64,000 nt of DNA, from the IMG/VR virus record IMGVR_UViG_2861084961_000001; one strand, 5' to 3'. The position numbers were made by a program, and so were the translations under genes. Positions 17,664-64,000 of the stretch are shown here, one piece after another. The stretch is from a virus. Lineage: Duplodnaviria > Heunggongvirae > Uroviricota > Caudoviricetes. The notes beneath the pieces were generated by a model. That model did no database searches. It saw nothing but the letters and a program-made list of their open reading frames with translations, and was not told where the DNA came from. Position 1 is the stretch's first letter. The number at the start of each line of letters is the position of its first letter.

Positions 17664-18195
17664 CACCGCTGACAGCATACACAATCAACTGCCGCTGATA
17701 GCATATCGAGAGTCTATCTCACCGCTCACAGCATACTTTACTCGATTTTTACCGCTGACAGCATACTTAAGGCATTGCATGAATAATGTGTACCGGTATG
17801 GGTATAACCAGAACAAAATTACCGCTGGCAGCATACGAAGGTCTGACATATGCCATTAATTACCGCTGATAGCATATCCAAACAAAATTCCTCAATAAAA
17901 CACCGCTGACAGCATACGTTCTATCAGGGAGCAGCAGGCAATAAATGCCTTTCACTACAAGTAATCAGCGCAATGGCAATAGAATGTTAGTGAGCGCAAA
18001 CCTATATGGAATGCACTCTTCGAGGTTAGTAACCACTGGGGAGGTATAAAAGAGCATTGAGTGGTGATAGATGATTTACCGCTCACGGCATACGTTCATC
18101 TCACTATACCGCTGGTAGCATATCTTTAACCGTTCACAGCATACTTTTCAGAAAAATAGCCGCTGATAGCATACATTTCACCGCTGACAGCATAT
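17664..18195. repeat. iteron array: 12 direct copies of CCGCTGACAGCATAC-like 15-16 bp repeats downstream of repA (incA-like copy-control locus)
   Basis: Copies near 17666, 17692, 17722, 17752, 17822, 17863, 17903, 18079, 18109, 18130, 18160, 18181, same orientation. Confidence 0.8.
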
Positions 18196-19288
18196 CAAAG
18201 CAGTTTGAGACTATTGGAAAGGATCTCAATCATCTTGATATTTTCAGGCGTCAAATTCTGTGAAAGTTCGGTTATCTTATTGATAATGTTCTGTTTGGCA
18301 TCAATTTCCCCGGCTTTCTCATCTGGTTTTTTGGGTTCGATGTCTTCAGGTTTTGGCGGTGCGACTTTGAGTTTTGGATTGCGGCTGTGAATCTGGATAT
18401 AGATCGACCGCCCTCGCTTAATCTCGCTGTATTCGAGATAACCCAAATCTTGGAGAGCTTTTAAGCCGTTACGTATAGTCTGATTCTGCGAGCTGACATT
18501 CCTGCTACTCAAATTGAGTCGCGCACGCAATCGAGCAAGCGATACCGGCGCAGGCTTGGTTGGAAGACTTTCGATGAAGGTGTACAGAGCCTGTGCTGTT
18601 TCTTTGCGTGGTAGCTTATTGATAACCTTTAACTGTAAAAGAACCTTATGGTCAAAGCGATATAGTTCGGCCAGCTTCGGTTCTGCATAGAACACCACCG
18701 TATCTTTCTGCTCGTTGTAGTCCACGCTATTGATGAGGTGCACCATCAGAAGCGAGATCTTGTTAGAGCCGTCGACATTCTTTTCTTCATACGTTCTCTG
18801 GAAAGACAGAGTGGTACGCATAATCTTCAAAAGACTGTTTGTAAGCCGGTCGCGGAGTGTTTTGCGGATCTGTGACGATGGATAGCCACAAAACTTCGCA
18901 AATTTCGTGATGCTTAACTCGACACGACCGTTAGGTTCGCCGTATTCTGCCAGCGAACGCACAACGCCCACCCACGTTTTGAAATCATGATCCATGTCGA
19001 GACGAGGACCGGTTATCTTGATATCGGAATAGCCTTCAGAACGGGCTACTTCGAGCTGAACAAGCTCCTTTGAAGCATCGATCTCATTTGGCTTGTTACG
19101 CTTGCTGTATTTTGTCCCTTGAGCGTTGGCACGAACAACCCCAGCCGCATCAACGCAATTGGTTGGACTGTATTGTTGCTATTAGGGACAAGTTCCCCTG
19201 TGTACAATTCAAGGGAACCTTCTTCAAAGTTGTCGAGATTATCTTCTACTTCTTTGTTATTTTTACCTTTTTTATTTTTTGTGGACAT
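18195..19288 (-). CDS. repA: RepA replication initiator (P1 RepA / RepFIB family), one frameshift near 19125-19140
   Basis: Blocks match recalled P1 RepA: NSNNTVQPIALMRLGLFVP, KITGPRLDMDHDFKTWVGV, LPRKETAQALYTFIESLP, HSRNPKLK; ORFs 18195..18995 and 19046..19408 in different frames. Confidence 0.8.
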
Positions 19289-19309
19289 GTGGACACCTTT
19301 GTCATTCAA

Positions 19310-19410
19310 CCGCTGACAGCATACTTGATTTGCCGCTGGCAGCATACCAAAAACAGTTGGCAGCATACGGCGAACCGTTGACAGACTATCAATTACCGCT
19401 GGCAGCATAC
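19310..19410. repeat. five iterons of the same family spaced about 21 bp upstream of repA (origin)
   Basis: Copies near 19310, 19334, 19354, 19374 (degenerate), 19396. Confidence 0.8.
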
Positions 19411-19450
19411 ATGAACATGGCTTCAGACCAGTCGTGGCGCGGCTTACAGC

Positions 19451-19523
19451 GATCGGGGATCTTATTTGATCTATACAAGGATCTATCTATGGATCTCTTT
19501 ATTAGGATCTATCCTGTGGATAT
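19451..19523. promoter_or_regulatory. origin-associated cluster of six GATC sites in short repeats plus DnaA-box-like TGTGGATAT
   Basis: GATC at about 19451, 19458, 19468, 19480, 19492, 19506; TGTGGATAT at about 19515-19523. Confidence 0.55.
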
Positions 19524-19608
19524 GTAATAATTAAAACAGGCATTTACTACCTTCGGCGCACCTGGTGGGTTATCGTTGCCTCGGCTAACAATCACAGAAA
19601 AATGACAT

Positions 19609-47800: not shown

Positions 47801-48190
47801 ATGGGCTTCCCTTCTCCTGCGGCGGATTATGCTGAGAGCCGTATTTCTCTTGATCAGCAGATAATTAGACATCCTTCAGCGACCTACTTCTTGAGGGCAG
47901 CTGATAGCCATCATCGTGAGGGAATATTGCAGGGTGCATTGCTGGTGGTCGATTCCTCACTCACTCCTGTTGATGGATCTCTTCTTGTATGTGCTCTGGA
48001 TGGGGAATATCGCGTAAAAAGATACCGGAAGTATCCACGTCAGCATCTGGAGGATTTAAGAACTGGTAAGAAGGAAGCATTGCCAAAGGATGATGATGGA
48101 TGCACGGGCAGCAATGCCGTGTTTGGTGTGATCACTCACATTATCAACGACGCAAGAAGTGGCGAGTTTGATGATTGTCCTGTGATGTAG
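47801..48190 (+). CDS. umuD: UmuD-prime-like protein (S24 peptidase fold, begins at the position matching the UmuD cleavage product)
   Basis: MGFPSPAADYAESRISLDQQIIRHPSATYFLRA...DGEYRVKRY matches the recalled UmuD core from residue 25 onward. Confidence 0.65.
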   Translation: MGFPSPAADYAESRISLDQQIIRHPSATYFLRAADSHHREGILQGALLVVDSSLTPVDGSLLVCALDGEYRVKRYRKYPRQHLEDLRTGKKEALPKDDDGCTGSNAVFGVITHIINDARSGEFDDCPVM

Positions 48191-48201
48191 GAGAACTGTT
48201 T

Positions 48202-48222
48202 AGGTGGTGCATTGCACCACCT
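48202..48222. terminator. perfect palindromic hairpin AGGTGGTGCA-T-TGCACCACCT between convergent umuD-like and mrp
   Basis: 10-bp perfect stem; T-run on plus strand. Confidence 0.45.
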
Positions 48223-48227
48223 TTTTA

Positions 48228-49328
48228 TCACACTGCGCGGAATGCGATTTCGCCAGGTATTACTTCACCTTGCCAATACATTTGGGCAGCAACGCGATCT
48301 GCGAGGTCACGATAAATAGCCGTAAATTCGCTATCTGGACGACTAATAACGGTTGGTGTTCCGTTATCCAGATCCTCACGAAGAGAGATATGAAGTGGCA
48401 TTTGGCCTAACAACTGCGTGTTGTATTTCTCGGCCAGTTTCTGTGCGCCACCGGTGCCAAAAATTGGCTCGTGATGACCGCAGTTACTGCAAATATGCAC
48501 ACTCATGTTTTCGACGATACCTAGTACCGGCACTTCGACTTTTTCGAACATCACAATGCCTTTCTTCGCATCGATCAGCGCGATGTCTTGCGGCGTAGTT
48601 ACCACAACCGCACCAGTTACAGGAATGTTCTGCGCCAGCGTCAATTGAATATCACCAGTGCCCGGCGGCATATCGAGAACGAGATAGTCCAGATCAGGCC
48701 ACAGTGTTTCCTGCAACATCTGCATCAGCGCCTTGCTGGCCATCGGTCCACGCCACACCATTGCATTGTCGTCGGTGACCAGATAACCAATAGAGTTGGT
48801 TGCCAGGCCATGAGACATGATAGGTGCCATGTGAGTACCGTCCGGTGAGGTTGGACGTTGGTTTTCCGCACCCAGCATGGTTGGAATTGATGGACCGTAG
48901 ATATCGGCATCCAAAATACCAACTTTCGCACCTTCAGCAGCCAACGCCAGTGCCAAGTTTACTGCTGTGGACGATTTGCCTACACCGCCCTTGCCTGAGC
49001 TGACGGCGATGATGTTCTTAACGCCATTAATGCCTGGTTGGTTTTTGACGCGCTTAAGCGTGGCAATGTTGTACGACAGCTTCCAGTCGATAGCCTTTGC
49101 GCCAGTGATACGGAGCAGATCACCACTACATTGCTCTTTCAGGTCTTCAAAAGGCTTATTCCACACGAAAGGCATGATTAGTTCGACATGCAGTGTGTCA
49201 TCCATCAACGCAACATGGTGTAACGCTTTAAGCGTAGTCAGGTTGTGCTTCAGGGTTGGGTGCTGAAAATTAGCCAGCGTACCGGCTACCATTGCTCTCA
49301 GGGCATCCGGCGATTTGGACTCGCTCAT
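48228..49328 (-). CDS. mrp: Mrp/ApbC Fe-S cluster carrier ATPase, intact, host-type
   Basis: 366 aa; deviant Walker A SSGKGGVGKSSTAVNLA, CxxC motif; near-identical to recalled E. coli Mrp. Confidence 0.9.
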   Translation of the reverse strand: MSESKSPDALRAMVAGTLANFQHPTLKHNLTTLKALHHVALMDDTLHVELIMPFVWNKPFEDLKEQCSGDLLRITGAKAIDWKLSYNIATLKRVKNQPGINGVKNIIAVSSGKGGVGKSSTAVNLALALAAEGAKVGILDADIYGPSIPTMLGAENQRPTSPDGTHMAPIMSHGLATNSIGYLVTDDNAMVWRGPMASKALMQMLQETLWPDLDYLVLDMPPGTGDIQLTLAQNIPVTGAVVVTTPQDIALIDAKKGIVMFEKVEVPVLGIVENMSVHICSNCGHHEPIFGTGGAQKLAEKYNTQLLGQMPLHISLREDLDNGTPTVISRPDSEFTAIYRDLADRVAAQMYWQGEVIPGEIAFRAV

Positions 49329-49485
49329 CCCGTCTCCTTTATTTTAATTTGCGCAATTGTCGCCTTGTAGTGTACTCCAGCTACGACATTTAATCATTTA
49401 TGAGAAATGCTGTTATCACATGGCAGACATAAGGCCATTTTGTTACTATCAAGCCCCTTTTCACTACAAAGAAGTAATGCCTACT

Positions 49486-51519
49486 ATGACCCAAGTCGCG
49501 AAGAAAATTCTGGTGACGTGCGCGCTGCCGTACGCTAACGGCTCAATCCACCTCGGCCATATGCTGGAGCACATCCAGGCTGATGTCTGGGTTCGTTACC
49601 AGCGAATGCGCGGCCACGAGGTTAATTTCATCTGTGCCGACGATGCCCACGGTACGCCGATCATGCTGAAAGCACAGCAGCTTGGTATCACACCGGAACA
49701 GATGATTGGCGAAATGAGCCAGGAACACCAGACTGATTTCGCAGGCTTTAACATCAGCTATGACAACTATCACTCGACGCACAGCGAAGAGAACCGCCAG
49801 CTGTCTGAGCTTATCTATACTCGCCTGAAAGAGAACGGTTTTATTAAAAACCGCACTATCTCTCAGTTGTACGACCCGGAAAAAGGCATGTTCCTGCCGG
49901 ATCGTTTTGTGAAAGGCACCTGTCCGAAATGTAAAGCGCCAGATCAATACGGCGATAACTGTGAAGTTTGCGGCGCGACCTACAGCCCGACTGAACTGAT
50001 TGAGCCGAAATCGGTAGTTTCTGGCGCTACGCCGGTAATGCGTGATTCTGAACACTTCTTCTTTGATCTGCCCTCTTTCAGCGAAATGTTGCAGGCATGG
50101 ACCCGCAGCGGTGCGTTGCAGGAGCAGGTGGCAAACAAAATGCAGGAGTGGTTTGAATCTGGTCTGCAACAGTGGGATATCTCCCGCGACGCACCTTACT
50201 TCGGTTTTGAAATTCCGAACGCGCCGGGTAAATATTTCTACGTCTGGCTGGACGCACCGATTGGCTACATGGGTTCCTTCAAGAATCTGTGCGACAAGCG
50301 CGGCGACACTACCAGCTTCGATGAATACTGGAAGAAAGACTCCACCGCCGAGCTGTACCACTTCATCGGTAAAGATATCGTTTACTTCCACAGCCTGTTC
50401 TGGCCTGCCATGCTGGAAGGCAGCAACTTCCGCAAGCCGACCAACCTGTTTGTTCACGGCTATGTGACGGTGAACGGCGCGAAGATGTCCAAGTCTCGCG
50501 GCACCTTTATTAAAGCCAGCACCTGGTTGAATCATTTTGACGCTGACAGCCTGCGTTACTACTACACCGCCAAACTGTCTTCGCGCATTGATGATATCGA
50601 TCTCAACCTGGAAGATTTCGTTCAGCGCGTGAATGCCGATATCGTGAACAAAGTGGTTAACCTGGCCTCCCGTAATGCGGGCTTTATCAACAAACGTTTT
50701 GACGGCGTGCTGGCAAGCGAACTGGCTGACCCGCAACTGTACAAAACCTTTACTGATGCCGCTGAAGTGATTGGCGAAGCATGGGAAAGCCGCGAATTTG
50801 GTAAAGCTATCCGTGAAATCATGGCATTGGCTGACCTGGCTAACCGCTATGTCGATGAACAGGCTCCGTGGGTGGTGGCGAAGCAGGAAGGACGCGATGC
50901 CGATCTGCAGGCGATTTGCTCTATGGGCATTAACCTGTTCCGCGTGCTGATGACTTACCTGAAACCGGTACTGCCGAAACTGACAGAACGTGCGGAAGCA
51001 TTCCTCAATACGGAACTGACCTGGGATGGCATCCAGCAACCGCTGCTGGGCCATAAAGTGAATCCGTTCAAAGCACTGTATAACCGTATCGACATGAAAC
51101 AGGTGGAAGCATTGGTGGAAGCGTCTAAAGAAGAAGTGAAAGCTACTGCCGCGCCAGTTACTGGCCCGCTGGCAGACGACCCGATTCAGGAAACCATCAC
51201 CTTTGACGACTTTGCCAAAGTTGACCTGCGCGTGGCGCTGATCGAAAACGCAGAGTTTGTTGAAGGTTCTGACAAACTGCTGCGCCTGACGCTGGATCTC
51301 GGCGGTGAAAAACGTAATGTCTTCTCAGGCATCCGTTCCGCTTATCCAGACCCACAGGCACTGATTGGCCGTCACACCATTATGGTGGCTAACCTGGCTC
51401 CGCGTAAAATGCGTTTCGGTATCTCCGAAGGCATGGTGATGGCTGCTGGCCCCGGCGGGAAAGACATCTTCCTGTTAAGCCCGGATGCTGGTGCTAAACC
51501 TGGCCACCAGGTTAAGTAA
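49486..51519 (+). CDS. metG: methionyl-tRNA synthetase, intact, host-type
   Basis: [29 protein letters not shown] (HIGH-type), KMSKS, C-terminal tRNA-binding domain; start at ATG 49486 inside track ORF 49357..51519. Confidence 0.95.
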
Positions 51520-52759: not shown

Positions 52760-52869
52760 AACATTGATAATGGCGGTCACAATTTGATTCTTTTCTATAA
52801 GAATCCGTTGATCGCCACTACTCCCCTTCCATACCTGCAATCACATCCTTAAATATCAATAGGTTGTAG

Positions 52870-53660
52870 TTGTTTATACAAACAAGAAAACAACTGAATA
52901 ACAGATCAACGAAACGTCAACGCTTTCACCCGATTTGGTCTAAAAAATTGACGTTTTCACACATCACTTCTTATACCCGCAATCCTACGCAGCAGACAGC
53001 GCCACAGCGTCCAATTTTCACCACAGACGACCCAACACACCACCAACAAAAACACACGCTCAAAATCGCTCTCGTTGCGTTACATAACCATATAAACAAC
53101 TTATTTTCAGGCATAACAAAACAACTAAATAACACATACGCAATTCCCAAAAACAACCAACCTCTTTATTGCAGGCTACCGAAAAGACCCACCTCTTCTT
53201 CCCAGGCTACCGGACAACCAACCTAACTTTCACAGGCAATCCGAAAACATTCATGCGCGCGATACCCACGACACGCCATTCCCCAAACAGCGAAGAAACA
53301 CCTGAACCACCGAAACCCCAACGAAGCCTGTAACCGCAAGGATTCTCTCAATCCCAAAAGACACGAAACATAACAATCACGGGAAACGCCATTACCCAAT
53401 ACACGAATAACTACAAAAGCCTTTCACACACTCCAGACAAACAACTCAAACACAATAACGAAAGGAATCGCCCACCTGCCATTACTCCATACACGGAGAA
53501 GAACAAGCACCAAAACGACGAGAACATCCCACAGAAGAACCACCGCAAAACTAACGAAACCATTTACACCGACAGAGAGAACAACACACCCAATTCACCA
53601 ACAGAATTAGTCGCCGTATAGAACGTTCTGGAAGGAGTGAGCATTAACGTCCATAGAGAG
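52870..53660. repeat. strand-asymmetric CA-rich non-coding region containing CAGGCTACCG-type direct repeats
   Basis: Plus strand almost free of G or T runs for about 800 bp; only ORF there is low-complexity; repeats near 53170, 53200, 53235. Confidence 0.45.
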
Positions 53661-53779
53661 GTTGAGACAGATAAAACACGAAGAAAACACAACATGTATA
53701 GCGAAGAAGCCAGGTATGTATAAGTGGGGAGGGAAGGAGGGGTGTCGCCTCCTTTTTCGTATTTATTCAACTCCTGATT

Positions 53780-53960
53780 TTATCCCCCGTAACACCCCTA
53801 CGGTCAGCCTTCGGTCCATACAGGGAAAGGCTGCATCCCGCTACAGAAACGGCTGGGTTGCCTTTGGGGAACGGCTGGAGGTTTTCAGGGAAACGGTCGA
53901 GTTGCCTTTGTGGATTTCGGGAAAAGGCTCGATGCCGGTTCAGGAACGGCGGCGTACCGG
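53780..53960. repeat. array of about six GGGAAACGGCT-like direct repeats spaced 22-30 bp
   Basis: CAGGGAAAGGCTG, CAGAAACGGCTGG, GGGAACGGCTGG, GGGAAACGGTCG, GGGAAAAGGCTCG, CAGGAACGGCGG. Confidence 0.45.
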
Positions 53961-54286
53961 TATAGCGAGAGGGAGAGTTGCGGCTACCCACCTGTAATGT
54001 GCGGGAAGAAGAGAGGCGCTCACGTGCAGGCGGACTTGCTTACCGCTGGATTCCCTCTGAATGCCCAGCTACAGCGTAATTGTGCCAGACAGCCAACGGG
54101 TCACGATCGATTTCAGTAGGTTTTCGGGGAGAGGATTATTCTGTCCACCAGCCACCTTCGGCCACTAAATCAGAATAATGTAAAAAGTGTACTCGGTACT
54201 GAACCTGAAAACTCACTGCCAAAACCACATTCACCGGAATAAAATCCTTTTTCGCCTGTGCGTTATTGCGATAATAACACCAACAA

Positions 54287-54301
54287 GAAAACATGTTGTT
54301 T
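54287..54301. promoter_or_regulatory. motif B palindrome (GAAAACATGTTGTTT)
   Basis: Upstream of 54314 gene. Confidence 0.4.
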
Positions 54302-54313
54302 AAGGATTGCTTT

Positions 54314-54643
54314 ATGTTTGCACATATCGACATCAACCAAATTAAGAAATTGACTCAAAAAGAGTTTGACCAGTTCTATGAGCTGGAAGGTTGGTCTTCC
54401 ACTCTGATTAATTCAAGATGGGTGCTGGAGCTGATGACTCGTGATGACGCACCTGCTTTGATGATTAGCGACCTGGGTGAAGATGCTGACTTTATGGATA
54501 TGAGCGAATTTTGTGTGGACACATACAACCGCAGCCAGAAGTACTACTTCACATGCGATAGCGAGAATGACGTGATTTCTAAGGTCTATCTTCACCTCGT
54601 CCAGCATTGGGACGTTCAGGAGTTTCTTGAGGTATTCGCGTAA
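54314..54643 (+). CDS. hypothetical protein (109 aa)
   Basis: ATG 54314 inside track ORF 54293..54643; motif-B site upstream. Confidence 0.4.
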   Translation: MFAHIDINQIKKLTQKEFDQFYELEGWSSTLINSRWVLELMTRDDAPALMISDLGEDADFMDMSEFCVDTYNRSQKYYFTCDSENDVISKVYLHLVQHWDVQEFLEVFA

Positions 54644-54795: not shown

Positions 54796-55107
54796 ATGAA
54801 AAAATCATTGGTTCTTGGTCTGGACAAAGACCAGAAGAGAAAAGAGAAGCCTGCACTGGTTGCTCAATTAACTTTGCTGGACATCGTTGCCAATGGAACC
54901 TCTATTCGTCTGTTCCGTGAAACAGCGGTGTCTTTCGATAAAAACACCTTTACTCGTTATGTAATGAATGTTCGTCGCCAGCGTGGAAAAGGCTGGGTGG
55001 CATTTCAAAGAATGTGGCCGGAACATCAGCTCGAACTGGCTTTGATGGAAGTTAACCGCGTGGCCCAGCAAGAAATTCAGAGAGCATCAGTGATGGCAAT
55101 AGCCTGA
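54796..55107 (+). CDS. hypothetical basic protein (103 aa)
   Basis: ATG 54796 inside track ORF 54766..55107; motif-B site upstream. Confidence 0.4.
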   Translation: MKKSLVLGLDKDQKRKEKPALVAQLTLLDIVANGTSIRLFRETAVSFDKNTFTRYVMNVRRQRGKGWVAFQRMWPEHQLELALMEVNRVAQQEIQRASVMAIA

Positions 55108-56268: not shown

Positions 56269-56436
56269 TATTAAGACCACCAGCATTGGTGGTCTTAAAT
56301 GACCATCCTGTTTCCCGCAGGCTAAAAACACCAACCTCTTACCTCCAGGCAACCGACAAACCCACCTGTTCCCGTCAGGCTACCGCAACTTTCCACTTTG
56401 ACGCCTTATTCGTACAACGATAATTAACGCCAACAA

Positions 56437-56451
56437 GAAAACAATTTGTTA
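56437..56451. promoter_or_regulatory. motif B palindrome (GAAAACAATTTGTTA)
   Basis: Upstream of 56472 gene. Confidence 0.4.
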
Positions 56452-56471: not shown

Positions 56472-56954
56472 ATGAATTTTATCGCTACTGTAAACGCACC
56501 CGCACATGGCAATATCGCTGTAACGTTCTCTGACATTGAAAAACGAGTACTTGGTGCCTGGCGTCACAATGAGACGGTAGAACTGTCAGCACAAGAAAAA
56601 TGCATTATTGCACGCGACATCATTGGCAATCGTCGTTACTCGCGGGTATTTGAGAAAGCGTATGTGGTAAATTCTGGATTCGGAACGTTCGTCTTTCCGG
56701 TGCGCTCCGGGCGATTCTGCCAGTCCAAGCTGATTGAGTTCGCTACGCAGATTTCTGTCTGGATTAAAACTCAATCGTCGTTCAAATTTTCCGACGATGA
56801 AGCAGTATCGCAGGGGATGCGGATCGCCAACAATGCAATTAAATGCAAAAACATTACGTATACCGCTGGCGTTGATACATGGAAACTGTTTTGCGCTAAC
56901 TTTATGCTGAATGTATACGCAAGCAACCGCATCCACATCCTTGATGGCGTGTAA
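56472..56954 (+). CDS. hypothetical protein (160 aa)
   Basis: ORF track; motif-B site upstream; followed by hairpin AGGGCC-AGAAAC-GGCCCT. Confidence 0.45.
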   Translation: MNFIATVNAPAHGNIAVTFSDIEKRVLGAWRHNETVELSAQEKCIIARDIIGNRRYSRVFEKAYVVNSGFGTFVFPVRSGRFCQSKLIEFATQISVWIKTQSSFKFSDDEAVSQGMRIANNAIKCKNITYTAGVDTWKLFCANFMLNVYASNRIHILDGV

Positions 56955-57570
56955 CTGAGAAGAGGGCCAGAAACGGCCCTTTCTCTATAGCCACCAGCTG
57001 CCGCAGGGAAATTTTCAGAAACGGCGAGGAACGTATTCATGAGCCGACGGGAAACGGCCAGGATTTTTTTCGGGAAACGGCTGTATTCGCCTTTATGTAG
57101 AAAAACATCGGGAAGCTGGTGGAATCCAACCAGCGGTTGTCGGACAGGTGAGCGGGGAAAATTATAATGACTTTCGTCGCCTGAGACATCCAGATTTCTT
57201 TCGTAGCATAATCACATACGTGATTAAGTGGTGTGATTATGTGAAAAATCACGCGCACATAATACGCGATCGGACACAGAACAAAACAAAATGCCGATCC
57301 GCACCGACAAATACACGCTGATCACATAGCAAGACTAAAAGCCAATGATTAACCATACTCTATAGCGCAATATAACGCGCTTTAAGCGCGTTAATGTGTT
57401 AAGTAATGGGTATGTACTGGCGAGGATATAAAAGCGCGACTATGGCGTTATTTTGGCGCTTATTTTTATGTTGTTGGAGTGAGTTAAAGACAATAAATAA
57501 CGCGCCAATGATGGCGCGTTATGGTGGGAGTATTGGAAACGAAAAAAGCGCCCATAGTGGGCGCTCGATT

Positions 57571-58070: not shown

Positions 58071-58720
58071 TTACGCTTTGAAAGCATCAGCTAGATAATT
58101 GTAGAAATCATTCTTGATAAAGCGATATTGCTGCGTACCAGCTTTGGCGCTTCCCATTCCTTTGACTTTCTCAACAAGTCCAAGACGTTCGCAAAGATTG
58201 ATCAACTGGTTGGCTTGAGTATAGCCAGCGTCCAATTTAATTTCGCACGCTTTTTTAGCTTCATTCATCAAATCGAAAACAGCGCCATTAGTGAACGTGT
58301 CGATCTCGTCGTTAATCATATCGATTAAAGCGAATACACGAGATCCAGACATATCAGCGACGGAATAAACACATTTACCAGCTTTAATGGATTTAACCAG
58401 ATAAACCAGTTTTCCAGTGAATAACTATTAGTCATAGCATCACGGAAAAATACTTCTGGCGCTTGTTTGCTTGCTTTAATCGCATAGTAGAAAACAGAGC
58501 ATAATTTTTCGTCTTCTACAGCGTTTACAACGTTGTTGATGAAGTAAGCAAGTTTAGTGGTCGCAGCTTGCATATTTGCTTTGTCTGCTTTAGTGTGCGT
58601 ACCATTTTTATAATGTTCGTTATATGTTTGAGTTGCCAGATCTGCTTTTTCGCGCAGCTCGTCGGATACAATAGATGCAGCTTCAATGATGGACTTTTTA
58701 GAAATGATAATGTTAGCCAT
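58071..58720 (-). CDS. hypothetical protein (ORFs 58325..58720 and 58071..58352, probably one gene)
   Basis: ORF track; overlapping frames. Confidence 0.35.
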
Positions 58721-59353: not shown

Positions 59354-59836
59354 CTATTTTTCTACCGTTCTCGACACGTAGTGTAACCTGACAAGCATCT
59401 GCGCCTGCTGACACCCCTCAATTTCACGGCCATCCGCCATGTACACTCTTATAGATTTGTTTGCTTTATAGGCTTGGTTGCAAATAGCAAAAAAATCGCG
59501 GCGTGATGGCCGATTATCGACATAATCAGGATGAACTGTTAATCGACCTTTGAAATCGTGAGCGATACTGTCAACCACACCTGATTCAATTGTACTAATG
59601 CGTTCAAGTGGGAGCCTTATACGATTTTCTTTGTCAAAAGGGGCTGGGCAAAGGTCAACTTTGTTACGAGATGGCATGAGGCCATAAACGTACATGCAAA
59701 ACGCCTGGCCATCTTCCAGAGTGGCCCTTACAGGAATTTGTTCTCTGCGCCAGAACATCAGTAGTTTTTCAACGTTAGTGTAATCTCGCGGCCAGAGTTC
59801 AGCTTGGATACCGTAGGTAATATCTTTGGTTGTCAT
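59354..59836 (-). CDS. hypothetical protein (160 aa)
   Basis: Internal ATG 59836 directly after the upstream stop inside track ORF 59354..59914. Confidence 0.4.
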   Translation of the reverse strand: MTTKDITYGIQAELWPRDYTNVEKLLMFWRREQIPVRATLEDGQAFCMYVYGLMPSRNKVDLCPAPFDKENRIRLPLERISTIESGVVDSIAHDFKGRLTVHPDYVDNRPSRRDFFAICNQAYKANKSIRVYMADGREIEGCQQAQMLVRLHYVSRTVEK

Positions 59837-59840
59837 GTCA

Positions 59841-60305
59841 TCACAGAGTTGTTGGCAGAATGTCGATGTCGCCAGAATTGCTGGTGAACACCCTGAACGC
59901 TTTTGTGTCTCCATTCTTCAGAGTCGTTTCTCGCTCTTGACGAGCGGGGTTTAGAGCACATAAACCTGCACCTTCAAGAGATGCACCCACAATTAATTCT
60001 CCGGCATTTAAATGGAAAGTCGCTTTTTCGCCTGTAGCCAGTTTTGCGACAGTTTCGCCGTTGATGAAAATGGAAGCATCACATCCAGCTCCTACAAAAC
60101 CTGTGTCTCTCATTACCACCAACGTAGCTGGCGCTGCGCTTTGATACTTGAACACTTTGGCCTGCGGTGCTGGTTTGGCGTCATGGATTGATATTGGGCG
60201 TGATTGGCACGCGGTAAGCATCAACACTGGTAACGTTAGTAGAGGGAGAAGCGAGTATTTCATGATAGTTTTAGAACAGAAAGTGAACAGTATGGGAGAC
60301 TTCAT
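59841..60305 (-). CDS. lipoprotein (lipobox LTAC), Gly/Ala-rich beta-type
   Basis: MKYSLLPLLTLPVLMLTAC signal with lipobox; RBS AGGGAGA before ATG 60305. Confidence 0.5.
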   Translation of the reverse strand: MKSPILFTFCSKTIMKYSLLPLLTLPVLMLTACQSRPISIHDAKPAPQAKVFKYQSAAPATLVVMRDTGFVGAGCDASIFINGETVAKLATGEKATFHLNAGELIVGASLEGAGLCALNPARQERETTLKNGDTKAFRVFTSNSGDIDILPTTL

Positions 60306-60612: not shown

Positions 60613-62172
60613 CTAATCTCGTTTCAGAACCCCAAAATCGAATGCTCCATCAATAGGCAATACACCTTCTGCAAAGCCAGGTGTGGTGTCGATGATGTGT
60701 TTTCGCTCATAAGAGTGAGACAACAGGTATTTGTTGCTAATGTCAATGAAATCAGTGATAAAACACACGTTTGCCTGATTTTTTTTGGCTCGTAAGCCAC
60801 GACCGACACGCTGTCTCATTTCAACTTCTGCTTTCCCACCACCAGCAAGAATGACCGCACCAACGCTTGGCACATCAACACCAACATCCAGAATAGTCGA
60901 GCCTATTAAAACATCTATTTCACCAGACGCTAAACTGTTCAGCTTTGCTTGCCTTGTCGTCTGGTTAGATTCCCCATAGATGAAATCAACTCTAAGACCT
61001 GACTCCTTCATCATCTCCATCAGGATTTGCCCGTGGCGTTTAAGACGAACCAGAGTCATGCAGTTGAGTGAATGTTGCTTATAAAGCAATGCCTCGCGCA
61101 CTATGGCCTCGTTACGTCCCAAATTATACACGATCCCCAACTGATAAGCCTTTTGGTAGGCGGTGCTCATACCAACTCTAAAATTGAGGTGTTTGTTGGC
61201 AAGTTCGGCCTTGATTCTGGCCTCGTCTGGTTTGTAGGCAACTTTATGATAAAGGAAGTACGGCTTTGCCAGAATGCCTCGATCAATCAGGTACTTTTCT
61301 GTGACTTTAATTTCAATTCGCCCGGCCACCGCCATCAGGCGCATGTTGGCTTCCGTCGAATCCTTCATGAACGGCGTGGCTGTAAGCGCCAGACGATAGT
61401 CTGCGTTCACACATAATCTGGCGATGTCATAGAAATTTGAGCCTGAAGACTCATGCGCCTCTTCCAGAATAAGAAGAGAGACACTTGAAAGGAAGCGTTT
61501 CACCAACTCCCGACGTTTGAGGTGGTAGCTCTTCTTATCTGGAGTTGCATCGCGTGGTGGTTCTTCAAGGAAACTTGCCAGAGTTTGAACTGTAGCGACG
61601 TTGATATGTCGTGATACCTGGAACTCACCCGAGCCAATTACTCCAACCTTTTGGTCTTTTAACCACGGTTCGCCATTTTCGGCGCGGTAGTCGATGGATC
61701 TCTGGAAGTTTTCGGCCATCTGAAACATCAGAACAGAGCGGGTTGTTAAAAATAATGTCATTCGACCGATACGTGCAGCTGCTTTGCAGGCAACATTAGA
61801 TTTCCCGCCACCAGTAGCGATCTGCGCAATCATCATTCCCTCGCGAACTAGCGTTTCCACAGTCTGATCCTGATACGCATAATCAGGATTGTATGGGAAT
61901 GGGTTAACCGCCGGATTTGGCTTTCCAAGCGCCGGGGCTTTGTCTTTGCGGATATGAACACATTTGATGCCCGCCTTGTTCAAGTTCGCCGCTACAGGCT
62001 TGGCAAAGCCAGCAGGGAACGAGTTTTTACTCCAGTTGAACATTGTGCTTGTGCCCTTCCAGTCGCCAGTCTCGACTTCGTAGCTCAACATCTGTTGCAC
62101 CAGTTGCTTTACCTTGTCATCTGCGCCAGAAATAAGCGCATTAACTGCGTTAGATACAATCCGAACAGTCAT
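60613..62172 (-). CDS. superfamily-2 DNA/RNA helicase
   Basis: Motif I ATGGGKS, motif II LEEAH, motif III TATP, motif VI QRVGRGLR; 519 aa intact. Confidence 0.7.
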   Translation of the reverse strand: MTVRIVSNAVNALISGADDKVKQLVQQMLSYEVETGDWKGTSTMFNWSKNSFPAGFAKPVAANLNKAGIKCVHIRKDKAPALGKPNPAVNPFPYNPDYAYQDQTVETLVREGMMIAQIATGGGKSNVACKAAARIGRMTLFLTTRSVLMFQMAENFQRSIDYRAENGEPWLKDQKVGVIGSGEFQVSRHINVATVQTLASFLEEPPRDATPDKKSYHLKRRELVKRFLSSVSLLILEEAHESSGSNFYDIARLCVNADYRLALTATPFMKDSTEANMRLMAVAGRIEIKVTEKYLIDRGILAKPYFLYHKVAYKPDEARIKAELANKHLNFRVGMSTAYQKAYQLGIVYNLGRNEAIVREALLYKQHSLNCMTLVRLKRHGQILMEMMKESGLRVDFIYGESNQTTRQAKLNSLASGEIDVLIGSTILDVGVDVPSVGAVILAGGGKAEVEMRQRVGRGLRAKKNQANVCFITDFIDISNKYLLSHSYERKHIIDTTPGFAEGVLPIDGAFDFGVLKRD

Positions 62173-62254: not shown

Positions 62255-62935
62255 ATGGATGTAAAAATCACGATTTTGCAGGTTGATGTTGCCAACCTTC
62301 GCCCGAATACCTGGAACACCAATTCGGTTGGTGCGCAGAATTTTGAAAAACTGAAAGGTTCTATCGAAAAATTGGGCTTTTTTAAGCCAATTTTGGCTCG
62401 TGAACTTGAAGATGGATTTTTTGAAATCCTCGGCGGCGAACATCGCTGGCGTGCCGCTATTGAGCAAGGAATTTCAATGGTTCCAGTGCTTTCTGTGGGC
62501 AAAATTAGCGATGTCGTAGCTAAACAGATGTCACTGGTGGACAACGAGCGATACGGTGAAGACGACCAAATCGCATTGCAACGCTTCATTGAAGAAATTC
62601 AGTCAGAACTTGACTATCAACTGTCTGAAATCGCCCCGTATGACGACGAAATCTCGATGGTTTTAGCAAAAGAGGCGGCAATCGACCTTGAAGCACTGGA
62701 GGCGTTGTCTCGTGGTAGTGATGAGCCTGTCGATACCGACAAACGAGAGAAAACCGAACGTGTGGGGGCGGAACATCAGACCATGCGCTTCAAAGTAACT
62801 TTCGATGCGTCAGATCGTGTTGCAGAAACCATAAAAAACATCATCAAAGAGCAGGCTATTAACACCGGTAATGAAATGGAGAACGCTGGTGAGGCTCTGG
62901 TGTGGCTGGTCGACTACTACAAGGAGCGTATGTAA
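62255..62935 (+). CDS. ParB/Srx-fold nuclease-domain protein
   Basis: LRPNTWNTN...GFFKPILARELEDGFFEILGGEHRWRAAIEQGISMVPV; ATG 62255 within track ORF 62237..62935. Confidence 0.55.
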   Translation: MDVKITILQVDVANLRPNTWNTNSVGAQNFEKLKGSIEKLGFFKPILARELEDGFFEILGGEHRWRAAIEQGISMVPVLSVGKISDVVAKQMSLVDNERYGEDDQIALQRFIEEIQSELDYQLSEIAPYDDEISMVLAKEAAIDLEALEALSRGSDEPVDTDKREKTERVGAEHQTMRFKVTFDASDRVAETIKNIIKEQAINTGNEMENAGEALVWLVDYYKERM

Positions 62936-63602
62936 TGACCAAAAAGTTTGAAATCGTATATCGCGACCCGGCAGATCTTATTCCCTATGAGATGAATGCC
63001 AAAAAGCATGATGAACAGCAGATCCGAGATCTGGCCGCAGCCATTAAAAGCGCGGATTTGACCAGCCAATTACGGTCGATAAGAACGACGTAATTATTAC
63101 TGGCCACGGCCGCCGTGAGGCTGCAATTTTTGCTGGACTTGAGCGCGTACCGGTTATTGTTCGCGATGATCTCAGTGATGACGAGGTTCGTGCGAAGCGC
63201 CTTGAAGATAACCGACTTGCCAGCATTGATTACGATGCAATTAAGCTACAGAAAGAACTTGAGTCGCTTGTTCTGGACGATATCGAGGTTTTCGGCTTTG
63301 AAGAGCGGGAGTTGAATGTTCTCGTTGGCAGCATGACAGAAGAAATGGACACCGACTCGCTAGTTATCGATCTGGGCGAAGAAACTAAACGACAGAAGGA
63401 TGAACACACCGAGATCAGTCGTGAAGTTGCAGCGGAAGAAGTACGTGTTGTCGACGTATTGGGCTTTAAAACGCTCCCTGCTGGCTCTGCCATTGTTGTT
63501 GGTGATTTGCTTGCCCACATGGAAGAAATGACGGGAGAAAGCGGGGTAGACGCATTTGTGGCATATGCGGAGAAGATCTCTTCCGGGGAGATGGCTGCAT
63601 GA
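62935..63602 (+). CDS. second ParB-like domain protein (frameshift near 63050)
   Basis: IVYRDPADLIPYEMNAKKHDEQQIRDLAAAIKSA then, in the other frame, FDQPITVDKNDVIITGHGRREAAIFAGLERVPVIV. Confidence 0.5.
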
Positions 63603-64000
63603 GCAAATACATCATCAACGTATCGTTTCAGACACGCGTAAATAAAACCACGCGCACGTTGGAAATCGCTGAGTCGTTCGGGCTTGGCCTGGACGAAAAA
63701 GAGTGGACGCTTTACGACAATCTGGAGCTGGAAGTGAAGCAGGCGATGTGGTGTACATCACCGGCCAATCCGGTTCAGGTAAATCCGTTGTGTTGCGCGA
63801 GTTGCAACGCCAGATGAAGGATGAAGGGCTTTCTGTAGCTTCTATTGATGACTTTACCTTCGATAATGAGGTTAACGTCATTGACCAACTGGGCAAAACT
63901 ACCAGTGATGCGCTTGGGTTGTTATCTATGGCAGGTCTGAACGATGCATATCTGTTTGTTCGCAAGCCTTCTGAAATGTCAGACGGTCAGAAATATCGTC
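63599..64000 (+). CDS. P-loop ATPase (ABC-like), partial at window end, frameshift near 63745
   Basis: Walker A GQSGSGKS and SDGQKYR in the frame following ORF 63599..63817. Confidence 0.4.

Follow-up and report, generated by a model that had tools for sequence, protein, structure and literature searches.

What do short, same-orientation repeats do in a part of a phage genome that encodes no protein? The question is raised by a 64,000-nt stretch of tailed-phage DNA (Caudoviricetes; IMG/VR record IMGVR_UViG_2861084961_000001), which was analysed at its full length and is referred to here as the window. The original prediction, drawn from the letters of this DNA, described an iteron-like array at 53780-53960 and proposed that it might be a second replication origin or a centromere-like site. 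The present analysis places the window in an SSU5/pHCM2-type phage-plasmid of E. coli and identifies two arrays of the same motif, which bracket a small gene cassette. Rather than a classical plasmid origin or centromere, these arrays most likely provide docking sites for a DNA-binding protein.

Almost nothing is known about the cis-acting control regions of SSU5/pHCM2-type phage-plasmids. Assignment of the window to this group follows from sequence matches and from the gene content of a relative. The 1-kb stretch around the arrays is 97-98% identical to ∼190 non-mobilizable E. coli plasmids of ∼110 kb each and to Escherichia phage Cyrano, and 67-78% identical to Klebsiella phage-plasmids and Salmonella phage SSU5. 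The closest complete relative, NZ_CP014490.1 (109,910 bp), encodes phage functions (tail, capsid, portal, terminase) together with replication functions (DnaE, a DnaB-like helicase, primase, ribonucleotide reductase and a RepB-family plasmid initiator), a gene content that confirms the assignment. Such phage-plasmids are frequently encountered in clinical Escherichia, Klebsiella, Salmonella and Enterobacter, and resistance genes are found on some of them (PMC9600943, PMC7969092).

Two arrays of one motif in gene-free DNA

Array 1 (53821..53957, + strand) comprises six direct motif copies scoring 12.8-19.6 bits each. Their core starts, located on the + strand with the regular expression RGRAAMGG, lie at 53823, 53845, 53867, 53889, 53920 and 53942, giving spacings of 22, 22, 22, 31 and 22 bp; the corresponding 15-nt matrix matches begin at 53821, 53843, 53865, 53887, 53918 and 53940. 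All copies read (C/A)RGGRAAMGGCTGG on the same strand. The predicted set of about six same-orientation copies is thus borne out by the pattern scan, as is its predicted recurrence at 56990-57130. There, array 2 (57015..57087, + strand) holds three direct copies of 15.5, 21.0 and 20.3 bits. Its matrix matches begin at 57015, 57048 and 57071 (33 and 23 bp apart) and its cores at 57017, 57050 and 57073; its onset is ∼60 bp past the stop codon of gene B, one of the two cassette genes described below.

The position weight matrix was built from 46 copies in six lineages and has the consensus (C/A)RGGGAAA(C/A)GGCTGG. A first scan of the sequence collection with a loose motif pattern gave many chance loci, which were filtered with this matrix. 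In the window, matrix scores of at least 15 bits are confined to the two arrays, which the matrix scan, a check proposed with the original prediction, recovers as the only array-type loci. Under the stricter pattern GGRAAMGGCY the window yields 6 matches where 0.73 are expected, and none of 100 shuffles reaches 6. Across the whole genome of NZ_CP014490.1, scores of at least 15 bits occur at the two arrays and at one copy inside gene A (15.3 bits). Since strong matches are found at only two places, the motif behaves as a local, two-sited cis-element with no genome-wide regulon. The arrays are specific to SSU5-type phage-plasmids and, in the literature searched, were not found described.

Two isolated copies fall outside the arrays. 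The single copy inside gene A (GTGGAAAAGGCTGGG, 54983..54997, + strand) scores 14.0 bits in the window and 15.3 bits in the relative, and is probably incidental because it is seen in some lineages only. The weak extra copy CAGAAACGGC (56969..56978, + strand) lies in the loop of the terminator-like hairpin GGGCC-AGAAAC-GGCCC behind gene B. In relatives this loop reads GGAAACGC, which does not fit the motif, so the copy may be coincidental.

The non-coding status claimed for 53780-53960 is corroborated by annotation. Array 1 sits inside a gene-free gap of ∼1.5 kb (52,760-54,293), and a gap of 1.4-1.9 kb is present at the same position in the RefSeq annotations of six relatives, where the sole gene call is an unconserved one of 153 nt in Citrobacter. 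The gap is conserved in blocks of ∼80% identity, and the small genes flanking it are variable. Around array 2, too, there is a conserved gap without genes (∼600 bp), bounded by gene blocks that converge on it; the array follows closely on the terminator-like hairpin of gene B. A hidden coding sequence over the arrays was considered and rejected: annotations disagree, and the hypothetical open reading frame (ORF) annotated over array 1 in phage Cyrano has no conserved frame. Among close relatives this ORF is interrupted by a 1-nt indel and by a deletion of 22 bp, and an annotated 69-aa ORF over array 2 changes frame in the window.

Conservation and helical phasing

Throughout this family of phage-plasmids from gut bacteria the arrays have changed little, and both are kept in relatives from Escherichia, Salmonella, Citrobacter, Enterobacter, Klebsiella and Cronobacter. 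The six-copy layout of array 1 (22, 22, 22, 31, 22) is identical in Citrobacter, Enterobacter and Salmonella pHCM2, and the array has 4 copies in Klebsiella and 3-4 in Cronobacter. Array 2 is present in all lineages, the most divergent included. Conservation in related elements, on which the original prediction was made to depend, is therefore strong.

Conservation is concentrated in the motif itself. Across four lineages, identity to the window is 72% at core positions and 44% in the spacers, a difference matched by 0 of 21 shifted masks. Spacings in the non-redundant arrays fall into classes of 21-23 bp (118 cases), 31-36 bp (36) and 44 bp (7), with a mode of 22 bp, corresponding to ∼2, 3 and 4 helical turns. 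The iteron-like organisation noted at the outset is real in this sense: direct repeats phased at ∼2 helical turns. As judged by sequence comparison, both the array core and its phasing are under selection.

The core also outlasts the proteins encoded around it. In the very divergent relatives L132, L135 and L137 the core GGGAAACGG is unchanged, while gene A is ∼34% identical or undetectable, gene B 29-51% identical and a neighbouring 216-aa protein 45-61% identical. The arrays are likewise the same in elements typed as rep_cluster_488, IncFIB and rep_cluster_763. The 13-bp motif can serve as a compact sequence marker for the SSU5-type phage-plasmid family, and together with the two phased arrays, the orphan two-gene cassette and an A+C-rich tract it defines a testable, family-wide element.

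An orphan gene cassette between the arrays

Gene A (54796..55107, + strand; 103 aa, phrog_5125) lies between the arrays in all elements examined, and gene B (56472..56954, + strand; 160 aa, phrog_1641) is always the last gene ahead of array 2. Both are enclosed in 23 of the 23 loci that have both arrays. The other enclosed genes vary, the distance between the arrays being 3.2 kb in the window and 1.5-4.3 kb in relatives; the minimal cassette consists of genes A and B only. Outside array 2 lie two further genes whose products are candidate binders. One, always just outside, encodes the 216-aa protein (58071..58720, - strand; phrog_1513), which is frameshifted in the window and 83-86% identical across lineages. 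The other encodes an FljA-family protein (59354..59914, - strand; PF03614, 'repressor of phase-1 flagellin', E 2.8e-67; phrog_1444); it is usually just outside array 2 and adjoins multi-copy arrays in L132, L133, L135 and L137. This FljA-family protein of the phage-plasmid might repress host flagellin.

The four proteins hardly occur outside this phage-plasmid family, and gene A, gene B and the 216-aa protein have no sequence matches in Pfam or the PDB. The structural model of gene A combines a beta-sheet with a helix, displays conserved arginines and weakly matches beta-sheet DNA-binding domains. Gene B is predicted with confidence (predicted local distance difference test, pLDDT, 92), and no structural relative was found for it. 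Naming the array binder by homology was therefore abandoned, the proteins being family-confined and the structural matches weak or absent. Because of its beta-sheet-plus-helix fold and conserved arginines, gene A is the foremost candidate.

Expression was read from the published RNA sequencing (RNA-seq) of E. coli LF82, which carries Cyrano (PMC9928086, S1 Table; one strain, gene-level counts only). Gene B and the FljA-family gene are expressed and are induced in macrophage samples. The cassette is active in the prophage state. In lysogens the array 1 region is ∼20-fold below the next gene; it gives log2 values of 2.6-4.7, against the 7.5-7.8 reached by that gene in macrophage samples. This low signal places array 1 upstream of the main promoter and outside the abundant transcript. 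Should the arrays turn out to be a control element, they would give access to a cassette turned on within macrophages.

Putative binding sites for a phage-plasmid protein or a host factor

No other place in the genome carries such arrays, and they go with the cassette, not with the plasmid replicon. The reading that we favour, though tentatively, is that they are phased protein-binding sites controlling or organising the gene A-gene B cassette. Both arrays would be double-stranded DNA sites for one sequence-specific protein of the phage-plasmid. Sites 2 or 3 helical turns apart would place the bound molecules on the same side of the helix, where binding could be cooperative. Protein held at both arrays might control or insulate transcription of the cassette, and bridging between the arrays could draw the DNA into a loop of 1.5-4 kb. 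Candidate binders would be the cassette products first, gene A above all, with the 216-aa and FljA-family proteins as alternatives. The conserved non-coding DNA in which both arrays lie also carries promoter-like boxes, a leader motif that recurs and a further family of repeats. Protein binding, the identity of the protein and a transcriptional or architectural output are inferred.

Several observations weigh against this reading. The nearest promoter-like site is 320-450 bp downstream of array 1, and array 2 comes after a terminator; neither array overlaps a promoter as a simple operator does. The promoter-like sites nearest to array 1 are TATAAG 100 bp upstream (53719) and GATAAT 320 bp downstream (54270). 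A Serratia-type lineage has one perfect (strong) copy at each array position, and the arrays as such are therefore not indispensable. Furthermore, the motif stays constant while all candidate phage proteins diverge strongly, a pattern that a host factor or a replication function would fit at least as well.

The host-factor alternative holds that the arrays are sites for a conserved protein of the Enterobacteriaceae, either a nucleoid-associated protein or a regulator, which would tie the cassette to host physiology. It would account for a core that does not change between hosts, or between elements with candidate proteins of only 29-59% identity, and it agrees with the response of cassette expression to the macrophage environment. 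To our knowledge, no enterobacterial factor matches GGGAAACGGCTGG. Motif arrays are also restricted to two places in the complete relative, and their positional co-variation with two orphan phage genes in 23/23 loci would not be expected of host sites. We consider this alternative unlikely, and it ranks second among the rivals: the foremost is a lytic replication origin, followed by the host factor, an RNA-level role involving FljA and, last, a centromere.

Relation to replication origins

The window already contains a canonical P1/RepFIB-type oriR at 19250-19560, where five iterons of 21-bp period are accompanied by DnaA boxes (19280-19295 and 19515) and by five GATC sites within 55 bp. The RepA iterons there are CCGCTGGCAGCATAC-type repeats (19309-19410, at the 5' end of repA), and the array motif does differ from them, as had been claimed. 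RepA was set aside as the array binder: the iterons have another sequence, and the arrays remain the same across three replicon types, so a protein that changes with the replicon is not the binder. As to the iteron-type pattern itself (at least three direct repeats of ∼17-22 bp with a regular period of ∼2 turns), it is found at array 1; the adjacent Rep gene, the unwinding element and the host-factor sites of an iteron origin are not found at the arrays. No AT-rich unwinding element was detected there (maximum A+T 63% per 30-bp window, array 1 itself being 54-58% G+C). Neither array has a DnaA box (at most 1 mismatch), an integration host factor (IHF) consensus or a GATC cluster, GATC being sparse, and the flanking genes include no recognisable Rep gene by Pfam, PHROG function or PDB comparison. 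Unwinding element, DnaA boxes, IHF site, GATC cluster and Rep gene all occur together at oriR, 19.25-19.55 kb. The proposal of a second origin thus fails for the classical iteron type. Mapping of an origin by GC skew was uninformative, because the cumulative skew rises monotonically with gene orientation.

An unorthodox origin is a different matter. The arrays could be a lytic-cycle origin used after induction by the element's own replisome (DnaE, DnaB-like helicase, primase), with array 2 as a second cis site comparable to P4 crr and an orphan initiator, gene B or A, binding both; this is possible but doubtful. The element encodes its own replisome, yet no lytic origin is assigned on it; a conserved gene-free region of 1.5 kb is a typical place for one, and the iteron-like repeats phased at 22 bp, the occurrence of the motif as two clusters separated by 1.5-4.3 kb on one molecule and the constancy of the motif across replicon types all agree with an origin. 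A UvsW-like helicase is encoded nearby (60613-62172). The DNA adjoining array 1 is strongly strand-asymmetric and silent in lysogens. This non-coding tract of ∼750 nt (52880..53660, + strand), rich in A+C (66-78%), poor in G+T and present in every relative, is the only stretch of the window with an A+C fraction of at least 0.66. Its GC skew is -0.41 to -0.57 over most of its length, its AT skew reaches +0.6, and in LF82 lysogens it is at the RNA-seq detection floor.

Against such an origin stand the missing unwinding element, DnaA box, IHF site and GATC cluster at either array; the lack of a recognisable initiator, helicase loader or primase beside the arrays, the helicase and primase being tens of kb off; the absence of a cumulative GC-skew switch at the arrays; and expression of the cassette genes in the lysogen. 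In its most specific form, for which we see a similarly modest chance, the gene-free region (A+C-rich tract, conserved hairpin block and array 1) and array 2 would make up a bipartite, P4-like ori/crr lytic origin whose initiator, gene B or A, has an unseen fold. It would fire without DnaA boxes or an unwinding element, perhaps through transcription of the strand-asymmetric tract. If true, this would mean a new initiator fold and a new origin layout.

Relation to partition centromeres

Two ParB-like genes had been noted at 62.2-63.6 kb, and they are indeed present (62255-63599), the second being frameshifted in the window. Their products match only the ParB_N (Srx-like) domain (residues 9-97 and 23-90), and a recognised helix-turn-helix (HTH) was found in neither. 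The genes are 5-6 kb from array 2, with a block of opposite-strand genes in between, and stand at the start of the packaging genes. No partition nucleoside triphosphatase (NTPase) is encoded beside or between the arrays, and an operon of a ParA-type ATPase and a small downstream gene is located elsewhere on the element. The centromere-like site of the original prediction is not upheld on this evidence: no partition NTPase operon adjoins the arrays, and the ParB-like proteins are distant and limited to ParB_N.

That the arrays are nonetheless the partition centromere of these ParB-like proteins is the most improbable of the readings considered. Direct-repeat arrays, two ParB_N-domain genes within 5-6 kb and the position of the arrays at both ends of the cassette, as in pB171 parC1/parC2, speak for it. 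The lack of an adjoining NTPase gene, the reduction of the ParB-like proteins to ParB_N without HTH, the opposite-strand genes that separate array 2 from ParB-like genes heading a packaging block, and the encoding of the usual partition pair (ParA-family ATPase and small gene) elsewhere speak against it. The sites also lack the palindromic form of a ParB-type parS. A packaging site was set aside as well, the terminase genes being ∼10 kb from the arrays.

Possible action at the RNA level

The arrays were compared with the leader of the flagellin gene fliC because an FljA-family gene adjoins them; the E. coli leader sequence was verified in >3,000 E. coli genomes. FljA-type proteins act on the translation of fliC mRNA (PMC2652032). 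The repeats could by analogy be sense-strand RNA motifs for a post-transcriptional regulator, with the FljA-family protein as candidate, that mimic part of the host fliC leader. The Salmonella relative of this protein blocks translation of fliC mRNA, the PF03614 protein is conserved as a neighbour of the arrays, and every motif copy has the sense orientation relative to the flanking genes. An array 2 unit shares the 12-mer TGAGCCGACGGG (57040) with the E. coli fliC leader, a length reached in 3 of 500 shuffles, and the C/A variant in that unit tracks E. coli-type versus Enterobacter-type leaders. A repeat of the A+C-rich tract contains ACCCAATAC, which also occurs in the fliC leader.

The opposing evidence makes this a slender prospect, only a little above the centromere. 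Scored with the array matrix, 79 distinct fliC leaders stay at background (best score 7.7 bits). The shared 12-mer consists mostly of flank, not core, and is restricted to the E. coli lineage, and other 11-mers of the leader occur by chance elsewhere in the window. A structured or known RNA was rejected, as the arrays give no folding signal (z = +0.62) and match no Rfam family, whether at the gathering threshold or at E ≤1. The array 1 region is poorly transcribed in LF82, no abundant transcript being seen across the repeats in the gene-level data (log2 2.6-4.7 at array 1). Finally, a helical spacing of 2 or 3 turns has no obvious meaning in RNA.

Sequence context of the arrays

The most conserved block of the array 1 gap lies directly to the left of the array (53719..53805, + strand) and retains 83-87% identity even to Klebsiella plasmids. 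It holds the TATAAG box, a hairpin (53731-53757) and an A+T-richer stretch, CGTATTTATTCAA..GATTTTAT. The hairpin is preserved with 2 compensatory pairs, being the only structure with a little covariation, and scores as terminator-like in the E. coli lineage only. Further left, the A+C-rich tract is conserved in composition, contains blocks ∼80% identical across lineages and has its own repeat families. Going by its base composition, RNA made from this tract would be unable to fold and would be an ideal Rho-loading substrate.

One of these families, R31, forms three tandem units of ∼31 bp, CCACCTCTT-n-CAGGCTACCG (53151..53242, + strand), conserved in relatives. A second R31 triple (56310..56447, + strand; units at 56310-56390) is followed directly by a TTGACG / GATAAT promoter-like site and by the leader motif CCAACAAGAAAACAA before gene B, a layout also present in L044; the promoter-like site was read by eye and not returned by the promoter scan. 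The position of this triple directly upstream of the gene B promoter-like site suggests that R31 is the putative target of a second DNA-binding regulator. A third repeat family, GCCATTACCCAATACACGGAGAAGAAC, has copies at 53275, 53386 and 53476 (+ strand) and more in relatives; ACCCAATAC, the sequence shared with the E. coli fliC leader, belongs to it. Pairing of the tract repeat GCCATTACCC with the array motif was tried and rejected, only 8-9 of 10 positions pairing, with internal mismatches.

To the right of array 1, a GATAAT box and the leader motif CCAACAAGAAAACA (54270..54293, + strand) directly precede the ORF at 54293-54643, in a block (54241-54300) that is 73-82% conserved. The leader-like motif CCAACAAGAAAACAA occurs at 52880, 54281 and 56433 (+ strand), directly behind -10-like boxes, and two of the three copies immediately precede start codons without an obvious Shine-Dalgarno sequence.

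Array 2 is flanked by two facing Chi sites, 56991-56998 (- strand) and 57115-57122 (+ strand), both conserved in relatives and the left one in 6 of 7 lineages. Further - strand Chi sites are found past array 1 (54145-54152) and at 56277. The window contains 14 Chi sites (GCTGGTGG) against 1.3 expected, four of them within the 3 kb that hold the arrays. Beyond the array, nested operator-like palindromes at 57204-57270 (+ strand; TAATCAC-ATAC-GTGATTA, GTGATT-N8-AATCAC and CACATAAT / ATTATGTG) are specific to the E. coli lineage.

Elsewhere in the window, four genes are split by frameshifts: repA (18195-19408), the gene for the 216-aa protein (58071-58720), the second ParB-like gene (62935-63599) and an ABC-type ATPase gene (63599-63999). 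Their pieces are 92-100% identical, at the protein level, to intact genes of NZ_CP014490.1, and the pattern looks like indel errors of assembly or a decaying element. The element also bears a methionyl-tRNA synthetase gene (49357-51519, + strand) and the gene for a 366-aa MinD/ApbC-like ATPase (∼48000-49200, - strand), the latter reported to be expressed in LF82 lysogens (PMC9928086).

Comparison with known systems

The arrays resemble several well-studied cis-acting systems in part. Like the iterons of P1 oriR/incA, F oriS, R6K gamma, pSC101 and lambda ori, they consist of short direct repeats that all point the same way and recur every ∼22 bp, and array 2 recalls P1 incA and F incC as a further cluster of the repeat a few kb from the first. 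Unlike the iterons of theta plasmids and phages, they have no Rep gene, unwinding element, DnaA box or GATC cluster, and their motif is the same in three replicon types.

The bipartite origin of phage P4, ori/crr, is bound by the alpha primase-helicase. What the arrays share with it is a short repeat that occurs as two clusters, separated by several kb on one molecule (3.2 kb in the window), in an element of the phage-plasmid kind. They differ in that no alpha-type primase-helicase is encoded near them, the DnaB-like helicase and the primase being distant and of a different type.

In pB171, parC1 and parC2 place a centromere at each end of the par operon. As in these sites and in R1 parC, the arrays are direct repeats at both ends of a small operon. 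Unlike them, they bracket genes that include no ParA, ParM or TubZ NTPase, and their repeats are spaced, not contiguous.

The C repressors of the P2 family bind operators made of direct repeats 22 or 34 bp apart, 2-3 in number, which overlap the early promoter. The arrays depart from this arrangement in having 3-6 sites located hundreds of bp from a promoter-like site, and gene A departs from the C repressor in being predicted as beta-rich rather than helix-turn-helix. What the two systems have in common are direct repeats set 2 or 3 helical turns apart and an adjoining gene for a protein of ∼100 aa.

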